A stretch of DNA of 64,000 nucleotides from NCBI RefSeq assembly GCF_013315695.1, contig NZ_CP054353.1; one strand, 5' to 3'. The translations under genes were made by a program, and so were the position numbers. This document shows positions 35,398 through 40,850 of this stretch, in pieces (the first letter of the stretch is position 1; each line of letters begins with the position of its first letter). The notes beneath the pieces were generated by a model. It saw only the letters and a program-made list of their open reading frames with translations, was not told where the DNA came from and did not search any database. This stretch comes from Escherichia coli (GTDB lineage Bacteria > Pseudomonadota > Gammaproteobacteria > Enterobacterales > Enterobacteriaceae).

Positions 35398-36369
35398 GTG
35401 GCACAGGAATATACTGTTGAACAACTAAACCACGGCCGTAAAGTCTATGACTTTATGCGCTGGGACTACTGGGCTTTCGGCATCTCTGGTCTGCTGTTAA
35501 TCGCCGCTATCGTTATTATGGGCGTGCGCGGCTTTAACTGGGGGCTGGATTTCACCGGTGGTACGGTTATTGAAATTACGCTCGAAAAACCGGCTGAAAT
35601 TGACGTAATGCGTGATGCATTGCAAAAAGCCGGTTTTGAAGAGCCGATGCTGCAAAACTTTGGTAGCAGCCACGACATCATGGTCCGTATGCCGCCTGCT
35701 GAAGGCGAAACCGGCGGTCAGGTGCTGGGCAGCCAGGTTCTGAAGGTGATTAACGAATCCACCAATCAGAATGCGGCAGTGAAGCGTATTGAGTTCGTCG
35801 GTCCGAGCGTGGGGGCAGACCTTGCGCAAACCGGTGCGATGGCGTTGATGGCGGCGCTGCTGTCTATCCTCGTGTACGTAGGTTTCCGCTTTGAGTGGCG
35901 ACTGGCGGCAGGGGTTGTTATTGCGCTGGCGCACGACGTTATCATTACGCTGGGTATTTTGTCGTTATTCCATATCGAGATTGACCTGACCATTGTGGCA
36001 TCGTTGATGTCAGTTATCGGTTACTCGCTTAACGACAGTATCGTGGTATCGGACCGTATTCGTGAAAACTTCCGCAAGATCCGTCGCGGTACGCCTTACG
36101 AAATCTTTAACGTGTCCTTGACCCAGACGCTGCACCGCACCTTGATCACATCCGGTACTACCTTGATGGTTATCCTGATGCTGTACCTCTTCGGTGGTCC
36201 GGTACTGGAAGGCTTCTCGCTGACCATGCTTATCGGTGTTTCCATCGGTACTGCATCTTCCATCTACGTAGCATCGGCGCTGGCTCTGAAACTGGGTATG
36301 AAGCGCGAACACATGCTGCAGCAGAAAGTGGAAAAAGAAGGGGCGGATCAGCCGTCAATTCTGCCTTAA
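35398..36369 (+). CDS. secF: Protein translocase subunit SecF
   Basis: GTG start, (M)[18 protein letters not shown]..., 323 aa. Confidence 0.9.
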
Positions 36370-36398
36370 GGGTGTTTTAAATCCGTTCATTTAAAAAA

Positions 36399-36428
36399 CC
36401 GTGGCGTATTTGCGCTGCGGTTTTTTTT
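36399..36428 (+). terminator. Rho-independent terminator after secF
   Basis: CCGTGGCGTATTTGCGCTGCGG hairpin followed by TTTTTTTT. Confidence 0.7.
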
Positions 36429-36489
36429 CGATTGTTGATTATTTTACTGAATACAGCTTTGGTTGTAGAAAGAGTTCTGACATATACTT

Positions 36490-36508
36490 TGTATTAATAG
36501 TTAATACA
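36490..36508 (+). promoter_or_regulatory. Palindromic candidate operator upstream of the parD-like antitoxin
   Basis: TGTATTAATAGTTAATACA (perfect 8-bp arms, 3-bp spacer) ending 2 bp before the GGAG RBS of the antitoxin. Confidence 0.45.
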
Positions 36509-36520
36509 TGGAGATCGCTT

Positions 36521-36763
36521 ATGCGCAAAATTACCTCAGTAAGCGTTGGCGAACAATTAGATAGTTTTATTACCCGGATGGTCCAGTCTGGTCGTTATGG
36601 CTCGGCCAGTGAAGTGATGCGTTCAGCGCTTCGTCTATTGGAACAACAAGAATCCCGGGATGAAGCTGTCAGAAATGCAGTTATTGAAGGTCTTGAGAGC
36701 GGTGAAAGTTCGATGACGCTTCGTGATATCGCAGCAGAAAGGAAGCAAAAACATCGTGTATAA
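36521..36763 (+). CDS. ParD-like (RHH/CopG family) type II antitoxin
   Basis: 80-aa protein MRKITSVSVGEQLDSFITRMVQSGRYGSASEVMRSALRLLEQQE...; RBS GGAG upstream; ORF track start at 36401 would run through the secF terminator. Confidence 0.75.
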   Translation: MRKITSVSVGEQLDSFITRMVQSGRYGSASEVMRSALRLLEQQESRDEAVRNAVIEGLESGESSMTLRDIAAERKQKHRV

Positions 36764-37037
36764 GCTTAGCGGAAAAGCTGTTGAAGATTTCAGAGGGATC
36801 TATGACTACACGCTGGGAAAGTTTGGTGAGGAGCAGGCGGATCGCTATACCGACTCTCTCGGCATTTTTTTGGATACACTCTCTCAAATGCCCGAGATTG
36901 GTCAAGACTATGATGCGATTCCAGAGGTAAAGAAGATCGCATTTAGGTTTCACACTGTTTATTACGTTATAAGAGTCGATGACATTCTCATTGCGCGCAT
37001 TCTTCATCAGCTGATGGAACCTCGCCGTCACTGGTAA
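36753..37037 (+). CDS. ParE/RelE-superfamily type II toxin
   Basis: About 94 aa from GTG 36753 ((M)YKLSGKAVEDFRGIYDYTL...FHTVYYVIRVDDILIARILHQLMEP); overlaps the antitoxin stop; start codon uncertain (36723 or 36753). Confidence 0.7.
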   Translation: MVYKLSGKAVEDFRGIYDYTLGKFGEEQADRYTDSLGIFLDTLSQMPEIGQDYDAIPEVKKIAFRFHTVYYVIRVDDILIARILHQLMEPRRHW

Positions 37038-37124
37038 TGTGAGAATTTCTTGACTCAGGATTGCGAAAATCCCCGCATCTTGGGAAACTGCGCGTAACCC
37101 TACATTTCATCCAGGTAACTTTTC

Positions 37125-37472
37125 ATGGCTATAATCCCAAAAAACTATGCGCGGTTAGAAAGCGGTTATCGCGAAAAAGCATTAAAAATCTATCCGTGGG
37201 TCTGCGGTCGCTGTTCTCGCGAGTTTGTTTATTCCAACCTGCGTGAACTTACCGTTCACCACATTGATCACGACCATACCAATAACCCGGAAGACGGCAG
37301 TAACTGGGAGTTATTGTGTCTTTATTGCCACGATCACGAGCATTCAAAATATACCGAAGCAGATCAGTATGGTACGACCGTTATCGCAGGGGAAGATGCG
37401 CAGAAAGATGTCGGTGAAGCGAAGTACAACCCATTCGCTGACCTGAAAGCGATGATGAACAAGAAGAAGTGA
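37125..37472 (+). CDS. yajD: YajD, HNH endonuclease-family protein
   Basis: 115-aa ORF with HHIDHDHTNNP...CLYCHDHEH motif. Confidence 0.9.
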   Translation: MAIIPKNYARLESGYREKALKIYPWVCGRCSREFVYSNLRELTVHHIDHDHTNNPEDGSNWELLCLYCHDHEHSKYTEADQYGTTVIAGEDAQKDVGEAKYNPFADLKAMMNKKK

Positions 37473-37477
37473 TAAAA

Positions 37478-37502
37478 AATGCCGGATATGAAATCCGGCA
37501 TT
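37478..37502. terminator. Bidirectional rho-independent terminator between yajD and tsx
   Basis: AATGCCGGATATGAAATCCGGCATT perfect hairpin with A-run on one side and T-rich on the other. Confidence 0.7.
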
Positions 37503-37509
37503 CTCACAA

Positions 37510-38394: not shown

Positions 38395-38692
38395 ATGTAT
38401 GCCACTGTTTGAAAATCCCTTGCGGGAGTGAAAAAGGCGCAAATTGCGTTTCTAAATATTTCGTATACAGAGGAGCCTATTATAAAAATCATTGCTCACA
38501 AAAATATGTTTCGTTTCACAGTTCTATCATTTACGTAATCGATTGCGTTCACGTTTACACACATTCGGGCGGGGATTGTACTGACTTTCACCCTTGTTGC
38601 AAACTTTTACTATCAATCCAGGTGATGTAAGCGGAGTAACAAAATGACGGGAAAAGATGTTGCGGGACGCACAAAATCGCCCCGCTATACGT

Positions 38693-39103
38693 TTACTGCA
38701 TAACAGGTTGAATGTCGTGGATACGTACAAAGTCTAACTGTTCTACAGAAATCCCCTTTAACTGTAACGGAATATCAACATCGCTGGGGACGAGGACGCT
38801 GGCAGGGGCATTAATCAATTGATTCTGCAAATTGATTTCCTGAAAGTTGTCTATTGTTCCCTGAATTTGCCCATATTCAACAGTTCCGCTGAATGCGGGC
38901 AAGGGGTCATTCGACTCGCCCTGAATACGTAGCGTCAGGGTGGTGCCATCTGTATCATGCGTAATATTCACTAGCGACATACGTAAAGTACCGATCTGGC
39001 TTTCCAGTCTTGCCGGTGTTTTCGCTCCAGGCAGAAGGTAAACCCCACTGCTGGATTTTGCATTCAGCCTGTTTTGCTGAGTGATTTTGACGGTTTCTTT
39101 ATC
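38693..39103 (-). pseudogene. yajI: yajI lipoprotein gene, C-terminal portion (split by IS200/IS605-family insertion)
   Basis: Frame encodes ...DKETVKITQQNRLNAKSSSGVYLLPGAKTPARLESQIGTLRMSLVNITHDTDG...VMQ; boundary placed so that both parts sum to 179 aa, the YajI length as I remember it. Confidence 0.7.
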
Positions 39104-39582
39104 CGGTGCGCCGTAAAACCCCGTCCTTCAGGGCGGGGATATAAGGCGCGGTTTTCCACCTGACCAGGTGTTTGCTGTTGTTCAATGTATTGGCGGATGA
39201 CGGATATTGGCGCACCTCCGCAGCTACTGGCAAAATAGCCAGGACTCCACAAAACGCCTTTGTAGTAATACCTGACTGCAATATCTGGTCGATCTCGTCG
39301 CAGTCACCTACCCGATACGCCTTTGAGGCTGTTTACCAGACTGGATATCGCCAGTTTGGGAGGATAGTTAATTAACAAATGGACGTGATCTGGTTCGCCA
39401 TCCATTTCAACCAGTTCAGCTTCAAAATCAGCACATACATTTGAATAGTAAGTGCGTAGTTTTTCTGTCGCGTCATGGTCAAAAATCTGGCGTCGGTATT
39501 TGGGACAAAGACCAGGTGAACATGCATCAGGAAAACACAATGCCTTCCACGCCGGATATCGGTTTCTTTTTTCACAGACCAA
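39064..39582 (-). pseudogene. tnpA: IS200-type tnpA (HuH transposase), apparently frameshifted
   Basis: N-terminal ORF 39304..39582 has CPKYRRQIF and the HuH motif DHVHLLINYPP, then stops; the C-terminal part (WSPGYFASSCGGAPISVIRQYIEQQ) continues in another frame (39064..39252). Confidence 0.6.
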
Positions 39583-40850
39583 AGTATCATTTGACCTGTG
39601 AAACGATTACAGGCATTTAAATTCCAGTTAAGACCAGGTGGTCAACAGGAGTGTGAAATGAGGCGCTTCGCAGGCGCATGTCGTTTCGTTTTCAATCGTG
39701 CTCTGGCGCTTCAGAATGAGAATCATGAGGCCGGTAATAAATACATCCCTTACGGGAAAATGGCTTCCTGGCTGGTTGAGTGGAAAAACGCCACTGAAAT
39801 GCAATGGCTTAAAGATTCGCCCTCACAGCCATTGCAACAGTCACTGAAAGACCTTGAGCGGGCTTACAAAAACTTCTTCCAGAAGCGGGCTGCTTTTCCC
39901 CGATTCAAAAAGCGGGGACAGAATGATGCATTCCGCTACCCGCAGGGCGTTAAGCTCGATCAGGAAAACAGCCGTATTTTTCTGCCGAAACTTGGCTGGA
40001 TGCGCTACCGGAACAGCCGTCAGGTCACGGGTGTTGTGAAAAATGTCACTGTCAGCCAGTCCTGCGGTAAGTGGTACATCAGTATTCAGACAGAAAGTGA
40101 AGTATCCACTCCGGTTCACCCTTCAGCATCAATGGTCGGGCTGGATGCTGGCGTGGCTAAACTCGCCACGCTGTCAGATGGCACAGTCTTTGAGCCTGTA
40201 AACAGTTTTCAGAAAAACCAGAAGACGCTGGCGAGACTTCAGCGACAGTTAAGCCGCAAGGTCGAATTCAGCAATAACTGGCAGAAGCAGAAACGCAAAA
40301 TACAGCGACTGCATTCCCGTATCGCAAATATCCGCAGGGACTACCTTCACAAAGTCACAACGACCGTCAGCAAAAACCACGCAATGATAGTCATTGAGGA
40401 TTTGAAGGTCAGCAACATGTCAAAGTCAGCAGCGGGTACGGTCAGCCAGCCGGGGCGCAATGTCCGGGCAAAATCAGGTTTAAACCGTTCGATACTGGAT
40501 CAGGGCTGGTATGAAATGCGCCGCCAGCTTGAGTACAAGCAGCTCTGGCGTGGCGGTCAGGTGCTTGCTGTTCCGCCAGCGTACACAAGCCAGCGTTGCG
40601 CGTGCTGTGGTCATACAGCGAAAGAAAATCGCCTGTCACAAAGTAAATTCAGATGCCAGGCATGTGGATATACAGCGAACGCTGATGTAAATGGCGCTCG
40701 TAACATTTTAGCGGCGGGGCACGCCGTTCTTGCCTGTGGAGGGATGGTGCAGTCAGGCCGCCCGTTGAAGCAGGAACCCACCGAAATGATTCAGGCGACA
40801 GCCTGAACGTAGCAGGGATCCACGTCCTTCAGGGCGTGGAGGATGTCAAT
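39104..40850 (+). mobile_element. IS200/IS605-family insertion sequence (IS609-like), about 1.75 kb
   Basis: Divergent tnpA (HuH Y1 transposase, degraded) and tnpB; near-identical subterminal imperfect hairpins at both ends; interrupts yajI; no terminal inverted repeats, as expected for this family; boundaries inferred. Confidence 0.75.
39598..40806 (+). CDS. tnpB: TnpB (IS605 OrfB family RNA-guided endonuclease; InsQ-like)
   Basis: 402-aa [20 protein letters not shown]... with RuvC-like motifs ([24 protein letters not shown]) and CxxC...CxxC zinc finger. Confidence 0.9.

Follow-up and report, generated by a model that had tools for sequence, protein, structure and literature searches.

A probable chromosomal toxin-antitoxin operon of the ParD/ParE family between secF and yajD of Escherichia coli

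The 64,000-nucleotide stretch of Escherichia coli DNA analyzed here (the window) very probably carries a chromosomal ParD/ParE operon, a type II toxin-antitoxin system, between secF and yajD. As a ParDE module, the cassette is standard and probably functional and autoregulated. Its annotation already exists in public genomes, and hence it is not a new find: RefSeq lists it as ParD/ParE in 424 complete genomes, O157:H7 Sakai among them, and specialists in toxin-antitoxin systems are unlikely to find anything here surprising. Three features are of more general use. The cassette is a clean example of a segment that is present in some strains and absent in others at one fixed position of the core genome. 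It draws attention to a toxin of the ParE type, presumably directed at gyrase, in major pathogens. Finally, the comparison of homologues precisely delimits a 19-bp putative operator and reveals a natural co-variation of antitoxin ribbon and half-site (Lys3-Ile4 with A, Arg3-Thr4 with G).

Organization of the locus

The cassette-specific segment (36370..37058, 689 bp), the limits of which follow from aligning the locus with K-12 and NRZ14408 and reading the junctions, stands in place of 62 bp of the spacer between secF and yajD in K-12. The replaced 62 bp are the site of K-12's own secF terminator. The G+C content of the segment is 42.8%, compared to 51% for the window. In K-12, secF is followed directly by yajD and the cassette is absent, as the initial annotation had stated. 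Only two genes are located between secF and yajD, parD (36521..36763) and parE (36756..37037), both on the plus strand, as are the hairpin, the promoter hexamers, and the ribosome-binding sites given below. The genes overlap by 8 nt (GTGTATAA), and the same two genes are called by PGAP. An antisense ORF (36681..37031, 116 aa) was taken as spurious, since it has no PADLOC match and is unannotated in RefSeq. At E <= 0.01, no PADLOC-DB 2.0 defence HMM matched ParD, ParE, or this ORF.

The ends of the segment (36370/37058) carry no terminal repeats, inverted or direct, and no target-site duplication was found. A transposon-like insertion was rejected because there are no terminal repeats and because the 62-bp K-12 spacer is replaced, not interrupted.

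A terminator-like hairpin revealed by RNA folding after secF (36393..36426) has a stem of 15 bp, with an A-run on one side and a T-run on the other. Its free energy is -22.8 kcal/mol (z = -3.45), and an equally stable structure was seen in 0 of 200 shuffles. The hairpin is specific to the cassette allele, and its sequence differs from the K-12 secF terminator. Thus, the earlier placement of the cassette between the secF terminator and yajD holds for the position and for a hairpin following secF, but this hairpin is not the terminator of K-12. As a predicted intrinsic terminator, it should insulate parDE from secDF transcription. Consensus scans called no terminator and no plus-strand promoter; the hairpin was missed by the terminator rule because its T-run belongs to the stem.

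The antitoxin ParD

ParD is an 80-aa ribbon-helix-helix (RHH) antitoxin (RefSeq WP_001226938.1), encoded from an ATG start to a TAA stop. It matches PF03693 with E = 1.7e-22 and 80 bits (curated cut-off 21) and TIGR02606, the "antidote_CC2985" family, with E = 1.2e-27 and 95.7 bits (curated cut-off 46.2), in agreement with the RHH antitoxin proposed initially at this position. A weak RHH_1 match covers residues 5-40. The assignment to the ParD family is based on the HMM matches, on the combination of an RHH domain with a C-terminal toxin-binding region, and on parE adjoining downstream. The closest solved ParD is V. cholerae ParD2 (7b22), with E = 2.9e-19 over residues 1-69, and Caulobacter ParD1 is alignable with residues 3-62. 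The N-terminal beta-ribbon, MRKITSVSV, contains Lys3, Thr5, and Ser6.

The Shine-Dalgarno sequence GGAG (36510..36513) is recognizable 7 nt before the ATG, and purine-rich motifs occupy the equivalent position in homologues. As judged from the homologous solved complexes 7R5A, 3KXE, and 8C24, ParD would neutralize ParE by direct binding, with its C-terminal half wrapping the toxin.

The toxin ParE

The downstream gene encodes a 93-aa ParE-type toxin (RefSeq WP_000277485.1) with a GTG start (36756..36758). It matches PF05016 with E = 4.9e-14 and 53.1 bits (cut-off 23) over profile positions 1-88 of 89, and no NCBIfam model at E <= 0.01. The HMM search that had been proposed for the two proteins thus yielded scores above the Pfam cut-offs for both. 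Since these families were matched and K-12 lacks the cassette, neither of the two outcomes that the initial annotation had named as speaking against it (no ParE/ParD family hits, or presence of the cassette in K-12 at this locus) applies.

The suggested ParE/RelE-fold toxin ending at 37037 is therefore retained on the basis of the PF05016 match, but its start is corrected. Position 36753, one of the two starts between which the initial annotation had left the choice open, was rejected because the codon there is ATC, the GTG being at 36756. The other, a GTG at 36723, was rejected as well, since it has no Shine-Dalgarno sequence and the Pfam profile begins at Lys3 of the 93-aa form. PGAP and all homologues have the start equivalent to 36756, with an ATG at this position in Photorhabdus; together with the Pfam profile, they settle the question. 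The sequence AGGAAG (36740..36745), in the 3' end of parD and 10 nt before the GTG, is the likely parE ribosome-binding site, its conservation being confounded by the parD coding sequence.

The ParE fold and superfamily are common to gyrase poisons and to RelE-like ribosome-dependent mRNA endonucleases. PF05016 covers both branches, and neither this profile nor the PGAP name "RelE/ParE" separates the two. Several lines of evidence make it highly improbable that the toxin is an mRNA endonuclease rather than a gyrase poison. A PDB sequence search at E up to 1 matched four ParE toxins (E from 8e-8 to 5e-4) and no RelE, YoeB, YafQ, or HigB chain. With the AlphaFold model of the toxin (pLDDT 78, fold order b-a-a-b-b-b, in line with the N-terminal helical hairpin and three-stranded sheet of ParE toxins), Foldseek ranks 1-22 are all occupied by ParE-family chains with TM scores of 0.75-0.86, including 0.82-0.86 for PrpT, M. 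tuberculosis ParE1, Caulobacter crescentus ParE1, and V. cholerae ParE2, whereas the RNase-type toxins RelE, YoeB, YafQ, and HigB yield TM scores of about 0.6 or less, within an overall range of 0.45-0.65. In addition, the antitoxin is of the ParD type and not of the RelB, YefM, DinJ, or HigA type.

The assignment to ParE is also consistent with the C-terminal segment R81-I-L-H-Q-x-M87 and H92, which are invariant across 38 homologues. The former aligns with RVLHQSM / RVLHQRM of Caulobacter ParE1, PrpT, and M. tuberculosis ParE1. The C-terminal segment is required for toxicity in characterized ParE toxins, and all family-invariant ParE residues are kept in this protein. By analogy with the characterized RK2 ParE, V. 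cholerae ParE2, M. tuberculosis ParE1, and Pa ParE, we infer that the toxin would poison DNA gyrase. To our knowledge, gyrase poisoning is neither universal nor proven for every toxin of the ParE family, and E. coli O157 ParE2 reportedly does not induce SOS.

Palindrome and promoter

A perfect 8-3-8 palindrome, TGTATTAA-TAG-TTAATACA (36490..36508, with arms at 36490-36497 and 36501-36508), is situated over the expected transcription start and ends 1 nt upstream of the GGAG of parD, just upstream of the ribosome-binding site as observed earlier. We consider it a putative ParD operator, a reading already offered by the initial annotation, and one that has gained real support from the comparison of homologues. 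The window contains 20 repeats of this kind, perfect and inverted with arms of 8 nt and at most 6 nt between them (0.31 per kb). Such repeats arise in 296 of 20,000 shuffles of the AT-rich 151-nt region upstream of parD (1.5%), and in 53 of 20,000 if the repeat must also end no more than 25 nt from the ATG. The 19-mer is present once in the window, with no second copy there at up to 3 mismatches.

The promoter elements assigned by likeness to homologues are a -35 hexamer TTGGTT (36459..36464) and a -10 hexamer TATACT (36483..36488), separated by 18 nt, the latter ending 1 nt before the palindrome. This candidate promoter is weak by consensus and falls under the 9-of-12 threshold of the scan. 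At the equivalent position, Photorhabdus has TTGGTA-18-[CT]A[TC]ACT and small Salmonella plasmids have TTGGCA-17-TACCAT. The rep_cluster_1304 plasmid clade has a near-consensus promoter, TTGACA-17-TATCAT. In most homologous loci, a -10-like hexamer is found 0-3 nt from the palindrome, and it precedes the left arm in every clade.

The same palindrome family occurs 9-12 nt before the parD ATG in 30 of 31 homologous loci, and the upstream DNA around it is not alignable between clades. The outlier, Salmonella pLG26p2, has a different 8-3-8 palindrome, GTTAATAA-CTA-TTATTAAT (7/8 symmetric, 18 nt from the ATG), and a KITT ribbon. Arm cells are symmetric in 95.8% of cases, versus 27-49% with partners slid by 1-3 columns. 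At arm position 4, eight distinct sequences have A:T and seven have G:C, and mixed pairs never occur. Where one arm has TGTG instead of TGTA, the other has CACA instead of TACA, and these changes parallel those in the N-terminal strand of ParD. Thus, the ribbon MRKIT[ST] is associated with TGTAT and M[AS]RTTS with TGTGT, a correlation that comes from only two or three clades and therefore may reflect a single evolutionary event. The two types (Lys3-Ile4 with TGTAT, Arg3-Thr4 with TGTGT) would constitute a ready-made RHH specificity switch. The symmetric A-to-G / T-to-C version of the putative operator is TGTGTTAA-TAG-TTAACACA. In the O157:H7 allele, the outermost pair of the palindrome is lost (A36508G).

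Another explanation is that the palindrome is not an operator but a chance repeat in an AT-rich spacer, as the shuffles allow, or an RNA hairpin of the parD leader affecting translation or stability. An RNA stem would be kept equally well by symmetric A:T to G:C changes, and several of the arm deviations are G-T, compatible with wobble pairing in RNA. We regard both versions as quite improbable. Chance cannot account for an element that recurs, equally far from the ATG, in about 30 loci with non-aligning flanks. For an RNA hairpin, complementarity alone would suffice, whereas the arm sequence itself is kept across homologues; moreover, other deviations (C-A, T-T, T-C, G-A) would break the stem, and a start about 7 nt downstream of the -10 hexamer, predicted near 36495, would fall inside the left arm, so that the full hairpin would not be transcribed. 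The co-variation of arm type with the ParD ribbon also argues for recognition of the element by the antitoxin.

Proposed regulation

Under the operator reading, the operon would be transcribed from the weak sigma-70 promoter TTGGTT-18-TATACT. ParD dimers would insert the N-terminal beta-ribbon into the half-sites TGTAT.../...ATACA; occupancy of these half-sites would block the -10/+1 region, and the operon would therefore repress itself. By homology to V. cholerae parDE2, repression by the ParD-ParE complex is probably stronger than by ParD alone. The 8-nt overlap may couple parE translation to that of parD. As in characterized family members, depletion of ParD would leave free ParE to poison DNA gyrase, and replication and growth would halt.

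Comparison with known systems

A template for this regulation is provided by ParD2-ParE2 of V. cholerae (PDB 7B22, 7R5A), which has the same parD-parE order and an RHH ribbon with conserved Lys, Thr, and Ser. Through these residues, the ribbon recognizes GTA[C/T] motifs located between -21 and +13, and the operator, with its GTA[C/T] cores, overlaps -10/+1 (PMC10776004). In the V. cholerae operator, a 6:2 complex binds three GGTA boxes; the cassette has a single 8-3-8 palindrome instead. The toxin match is weak (E = 5e-4), and the V. cholerae system is located in the superintegron rather than at secF-yajD. Experiments have shown V. cholerae ParE2 to be a gyrase poison (PMC3001019).

Closer in toxin sequence are Caulobacter crescentus ParD1-ParE1 (PDB 3KXE) and M. 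tuberculosis ParDE1 (PDB 8C24), with E = 9e-8 and 3e-7, respectively, and TM = 0.83. Both toxins share the RVLHQxM C-terminal motif with the cassette ParE, but they are only about 31-32% identical to it and come from other hosts with other operators. The top toxin match is PrpT of the PrpA-PrpT system from Pseudoalteromonas rubra (PDB 7YCS; E = 8e-8, TM = 0.86), which, unlike the cassette, is plasmid-borne. PrpA also binds replication iterons and thereby controls plasmid copy number; nothing suggests such a role for the cassette.

The prototype RK2/RP4 ParDE and the Yersinia pYV ParDE (PMC10203498) belong to the same family and have the same proposed mechanism, in which a gyrase-poisoning ParE held by an RHH ParD stabilizes the plasmid, but they are distant. 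RK2 ParE is absent among the plasmid matches listed. ParE proteins annotated on Yersinia plasmids of 66-73 kb, which we take to be pYV/pCD1, are 35-36% identical to the toxin. The ParE fold is also found in PaaR2-PaaA2-ParE2 of E. coli O157:H7 (PDB 5CW7, 5CZF), with TM = 0.76 and an identity of 18-20%. The latter is a prophage-borne, three-component system that includes a PaaA antitoxin and the regulator PaaR (PMC7167474); between secF and yajD, neither a PaaA-type antitoxin nor a third, PaaR gene is present.

Distribution and selection

The comparison of secF-yajD junctions across strains that had been suggested shows the cassette in 424 of 5,426 complete E. coli genomes (7.8%), always at secF-yajD. 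The carriers include CE10, IAI39, 042, and O157:H7 (ECs_0461/ECs_0462), and the cassette presumably marks lineages of phylogroups D, E, and F, O157:H7 included. Literature searches by locus tags yielded no paper naming ECs0461/ECs0462 or Z0509/Z0510, and those combining yajD/secF with toxin-antitoxin systems yielded nothing relevant; no paper reporting an experimental test of the cassette was found.

The ParD protein is identical in the compared CE10, 042, and O157:H7 alleles. Between-allele changes comprise five synonymous and no non-synonymous ones in parD, and four synonymous and two non-synonymous ones in parE; the synonymous share (9 of 11) gives a binomial p = 1.3e-4 against a rough expectation of 25%. 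Judged from these substitutions, both genes are under purifying selection.

Chromosomal toxin-antitoxin modules often decay, and the cassette might be a decayed or domesticated remnant in which the genes are intact and the toxin is no longer toxic or expressed. An example of such decay is ccdO157, cited in PMC7167474. The weak promoter would fit this scenario, as would the O157 allele, in which the slightly degraded palindrome is accompanied by the ParE substitutions E25D and I37T. An IS3 insertion in strain E105 cuts parD short and parts it from an intact parE; the strain is viable, and therefore the toxin need not be expressed after its uncoupling from the promoter. Still, the purifying selection, with no change in ParD, and the retention of all family-invariant ParE residues point the other way. 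Furthermore, coverage is at least 80% in 424 of the 426 genomes with any cassette DNA, and both genes are annotated in every record listed. We therefore consider a remnant improbable and retain the reading of a functional module.

Plasmid relatives and possible role

The toxin has its nearest relatives, without exception, in a plasmid setting beside repA or Rep_1. They are the ParDE systems of the rep_cluster_1304 plasmids, beside repA in Yersinia ruckeri, Serratia, Rouxiella, Pectobacterium, and Citrobacter, and of small Salmonella Rep_1 plasmids, with ParD 75-88% and ParE 56-66% identical to the cassette proteins. Gene lengths, the 8-nt overlap, and the family and position of the palindrome are the same as in the cassette. 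The rep_cluster_1304 clade differs by TGTGT half-sites, a MARTTS ribbon, a near-consensus promoter, and its location on plasmids beside replication genes. In the small Salmonella Rep_1 plasmids, the 19-mer and the ParD ribbon are identical to those of the cassette and ParD is identical in 70 of 80 positions, whereas identity in the toxin reaches only 65-66% and the upstream DNA outside the 19-mer is not alignable. We found no characterization of the ParDE of either plasmid group. A scan of genome contigs with the single toxin sequence found nothing, and a rescan with an alignment recovered 41 loci, none closer than 60%.

These similarities raise the question of another selected role with the same mechanism. 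Because the ribbon and the 19-bp operator are identical to those of the Salmonella Rep_1 plasmids, ParD could repress and neutralize an incoming parDE. The cassette might then serve as an anti-addiction or cross-regulation module, in which the chromosomal ParD neutralizes and co-represses plasmid ParDE and frees the host from post-segregational killing. Chromosomal ccd and ataRT provide a precedent (PMC7167474). This role is a minor possibility, given that the toxins are only 56-66% identical and that the best E. coli plasmid match to the toxin is 56.5%, with none at high identity. The cassette is probably a self-stabilizing, horizontally acquired module, as suggested by its 42.8% G+C content and by the occurrence of its nearest relatives on plasmids beside replication genes. 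An effect on a neighboring gene is conceivable, since there is no terminator between parE and yajD, and the HNH nuclease gene yajD may therefore be partly under ParD control.

Gene layout and family assignment

The secF gene ends at 36369 and is followed by parD (ATG 36521 to TAA 36763, 80 codons), parE in a different frame (end at 37037), yajD (start at 37125) and, on the opposite strand, tsx. Sequence readout shows the two-ORF layout and the perfect palindrome upstream of parD to be present as described in the initial annotation. The toxin start had been placed at a GTG at 36753; this position reads ATC, and the GTG is at 36756-36758. Five lines of evidence support the latter as the parE start: (i) PGAP selects the equivalent position in CE10, 042, and O157:H7; (ii) the Pfam profile begins at Lys3, residue 3 of the resulting 93-aa form; (iii) MYKL are the first residues from the equivalent codon in all plasmid and chromosomal homologues; (iv) this codon is ATG in the Photorhabdus homologues; and (v) AGGAAG lies 10 nt upstream of the GTG. 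The other previously suggested start, 36723, was rejected, as neither PGAP, the profile start nor homologues favor it. The parD and parE genes overlap by 8 nt (GTGTATAA), an arrangement usual for translational coupling.

The family assignments were borne out by HMM searches, all above the cut-offs: ParD scores 80 bits against PF03693 (cut-off 21) and 95.7 bits against TIGR02606 (cut-off 46.2), and ParE 53.1 bits against PF05016 (cut-off 23). Sequence matches in PDB are V. cholerae ParD2 (E 2.9e-19), Caulobacter ParD1, and M. tuberculosis ParD1 for ParD, and 7YCS, M. tuberculosis ParE1, Caulobacter ParE1, and V. cholerae ParE2 for ParE; the latter matches include no RelE-type toxin even at E <=1. 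ParE was modelled with AlphaFold from 38 homologues (pLDDT 78); the model runs strand, two helices, three strands. In a Foldseek search of PDB its best 22 matches are all ParE-family chains (TM 0.75-0.86), compared with TM 0.45-0.65 for RelE, YoeB, and YafQ. The C-terminal motif R-I-L-H-Q-x-M is invariant in homologues and common to solved ParE toxins. Because of the PDB sequence, Foldseek, and C-terminal motif evidence, the predicted toxin is assigned to the ParE branch and not to the RNase branch; by analogy with characterised relatives, it would act by gyrase poisoning. A PaaR-PaaA-ParE system is ruled out, because the third gene is absent, and a PADLOC search of the cassette gave zero matches. 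The cassette is a textbook example of a known family.

In hundreds of genomes, RefSeq already labels the two genes as a type II pair, ParD/ParE. TAfinder predictions for EDL933, a phylogroup E strain, are tabulated in a 2020 review that stars unvalidated systems (PMC7167474), and a review from 2025 covering the type II systems of E. coli gives ParDE only as plasmid-borne (PMC11869752). The cassette is thus annotated, but our literature search turned up neither a mention of its locus tags or of the secF-yajD site nor any experimental characterisation. Only the comparative definition of a putative operator and its pairing with the ParD ribbon are mildly new.

Putative operator and promoter

The palindrome consists of TGTATTAA (36490-36497), TAG, and TTAATACA (36501-36508), followed by GGAG (36510-36513), which precedes the parD ATG by 7 nt. 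The window contains 20 perfect 8-nt inverted repeats, and shuffling the 151-nt region upstream of parD yields one in 1.5% of cases; such a repeat alone is not rare in an AT-rich spacer, and the weight rests on comparative evidence. The nearest toxin relatives (56-66% identical) are encoded beside repA on rep_cluster_1304 plasmids of Yersinia ruckeri, Serratia, Rouxiella, Pectobacterium, and Klebsiella, on small Salmonella Rep_1 plasmids, and in genome assemblies of Photorhabdus, Enterobacter cancerogenus, Pantoea rodasii, and others. All of the Salmonella Rep_1 plasmids (L053-L060) also carry a conserved 63-aa ORF directly 3' of parE and upstream of the Rep_1 gene, with zero Pfam matches and no counterpart in the window.

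In 30 of 31 loci examined, the parD ATG is preceded at 9-12 nt by a palindrome of the same 8-3-8 family, mostly with a -10-like hexamer 0-3 nt upstream of the palindrome, and the remaining upstream DNA is unalignable between clades. The 19-mer of the small Salmonella plasmids is identical to that of the window; in the rep_cluster_1304 clade it is TGTGTTAA-TAG-TTAACACA, with the fourth base of both arms changed; in O157:H7 the outermost pair is lost. Among 15 distinct operator sequences, the arms are symmetric at 95.8% of positions, versus 27-49% with partners slid by 1-3 columns, and at the fourth arm position eight have A:T, seven have G:C, and none has a mixed pair. The half-site tracks the N-terminal strand of ParD (the ribbon), MRKIT[ST] occurring with TGTAT and M[AS]RTTS with TGTGT, although, the clades being few, one or two events could account for this co-variation. 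In V. cholerae ParD2, the closest solved ParD, conserved Lys, Thr, and Ser of the ribbon recognise GTA[C/T] motifs over -21 to +13 (PMC10776004); the window ParD has Lys3, Thr5, and Ser6. The one locus outside the palindrome family, on Salmonella plasmid pLG26p2, combines a KITT strand with an 8-3-8 palindrome of another kind at a distance of 18 nt from the parD ATG.

A consensus scan found no promoter on the + strand. Alignment with Photorhabdus and the small Salmonella plasmids points to TTGGTT (36459-64, +) and TATACT (36483-88, +), separated by 18 nt, as the likely -35 and -10 elements of the cassette promoter. The equivalents are TTGGTA-18-[CT]A[TC]ACT in Photorhabdus, TTGGCA-17-TACCAT in the small Salmonella plasmids, and TTGACA-17-TATCAT in the plasmid clade. 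Transcription would then start within the left palindrome arm, which fits repression by occlusion and speaks against the alternative that the palindrome acts as an RNA hairpin. The stretch between parE and yajD showed neither a terminator nor significant structure, so read-through into yajD may occur.

Distribution and evolution of the cassette

As stated in the initial annotation, in K-12 secF is directly followed by yajD (128-bp spacer in MG1655). Relative to K-12, 36370..37058 (689 bp; G+C 42.8% versus 51% for the window) stands in place of 62 bp, among them the secF terminator of K-12 itself; homology ends precisely at the secF stop codon and returns at GATTGCGAAAATCCCC, and no terminal repeats were found at the ends of the segment. 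The cassette allele has its own strong hairpin after secF (36393..36426, dG -22.8 kcal/mol, z -3.45). Upstream of its foot, and overlapping it, a second perfect 8-nt inverted repeat, TTTTAAAT-CCGTTC-ATTTAAAA (36375..36396), directly follows the secF stop codon and forms only a short stem in the MFE fold.

The cassette is present in 424 of 5,426 complete E. coli genomes, always as one unbroken secF-parD-parE-yajD stretch, and at >=80% coverage these genomes contain no copies elsewhere or on a plasmid. Carriers include CE10 and IAI39 (phylogroup F), 042 (phylogroup D), and O157:H7 (phylogroup E); in Sakai the pair is ECs_0461 and ECs_0462, annotated as 'transcriptional regulator' and 'plasmid stabilization system protein', respectively. 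NRZ14408 has flanks closer to the window (99.2% identity in secF, 98.6% in yajD) than those of O157, yet its spacer is of the K-12 type; hence the cassette and the K-12-type spacer look like alternative alleles swapped by recombination in the flanks. Over 36370..37124, CE10 and the window share 99.9-100% identity, but over yajD (37125..37472) only 96.6%, less than cassette-free NRZ14408 shares with the window there. This pattern, not following the cassette, suggests a recombination breakpoint near the yajD start.

Across the window, CE10, 042, and two O157:H7 strains, parD shows five substitutions, all synonymous (identical protein, WP_001226938.1), and parE six, four of them synonymous, with E25D and I37T distinguishing the O157 ParE. 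The excess of synonymous changes (9 of 11, where neutrality would give roughly 25%; p = 1.3e-4) speaks against a remnant in decay. The 042 allele is a mosaic, matching O157:H7 at 36388-36457, including a hypervariable patch (36429-36445), and the window in the coding part (compared over 36473..37037), which suggests recombination within the cassette. In E. coli E105 (NZ_CP071375.1, 1464..3294), an IS3-family insertion at the parD 3' end leaves a 76-aa ParD and an intact parE ~1.3 kb away; this strain is viable though its toxin gene is uncoupled from its promoter.

The neighboring region also varies. The yajD-tsx spacer (37473..37509) is 37 bp in the window and CE10 versus 176 bp in K-12, 042, and O157:H7, where the extra ~139 bp have a REP/BIME-type palindromic look (GCCTGATGCGCTACGCTTATCAGGCC ... 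GCCGGA.AA.GCGTTTACGCCGCATCCGGC). Downstream of tsx (~38690..39600 and beyond), yajI (DUF3251) is truncated and adjoins an IS200/IS605 tnpA fragment; CE10 (99.9% identical to the window over the 755-bp cassette query) is annotated there with a yajI pseudogene, a frameshifted tnpA, and an InsQ/TnpB gene, and yajI is intact in K-12, 042, and O157:H7.
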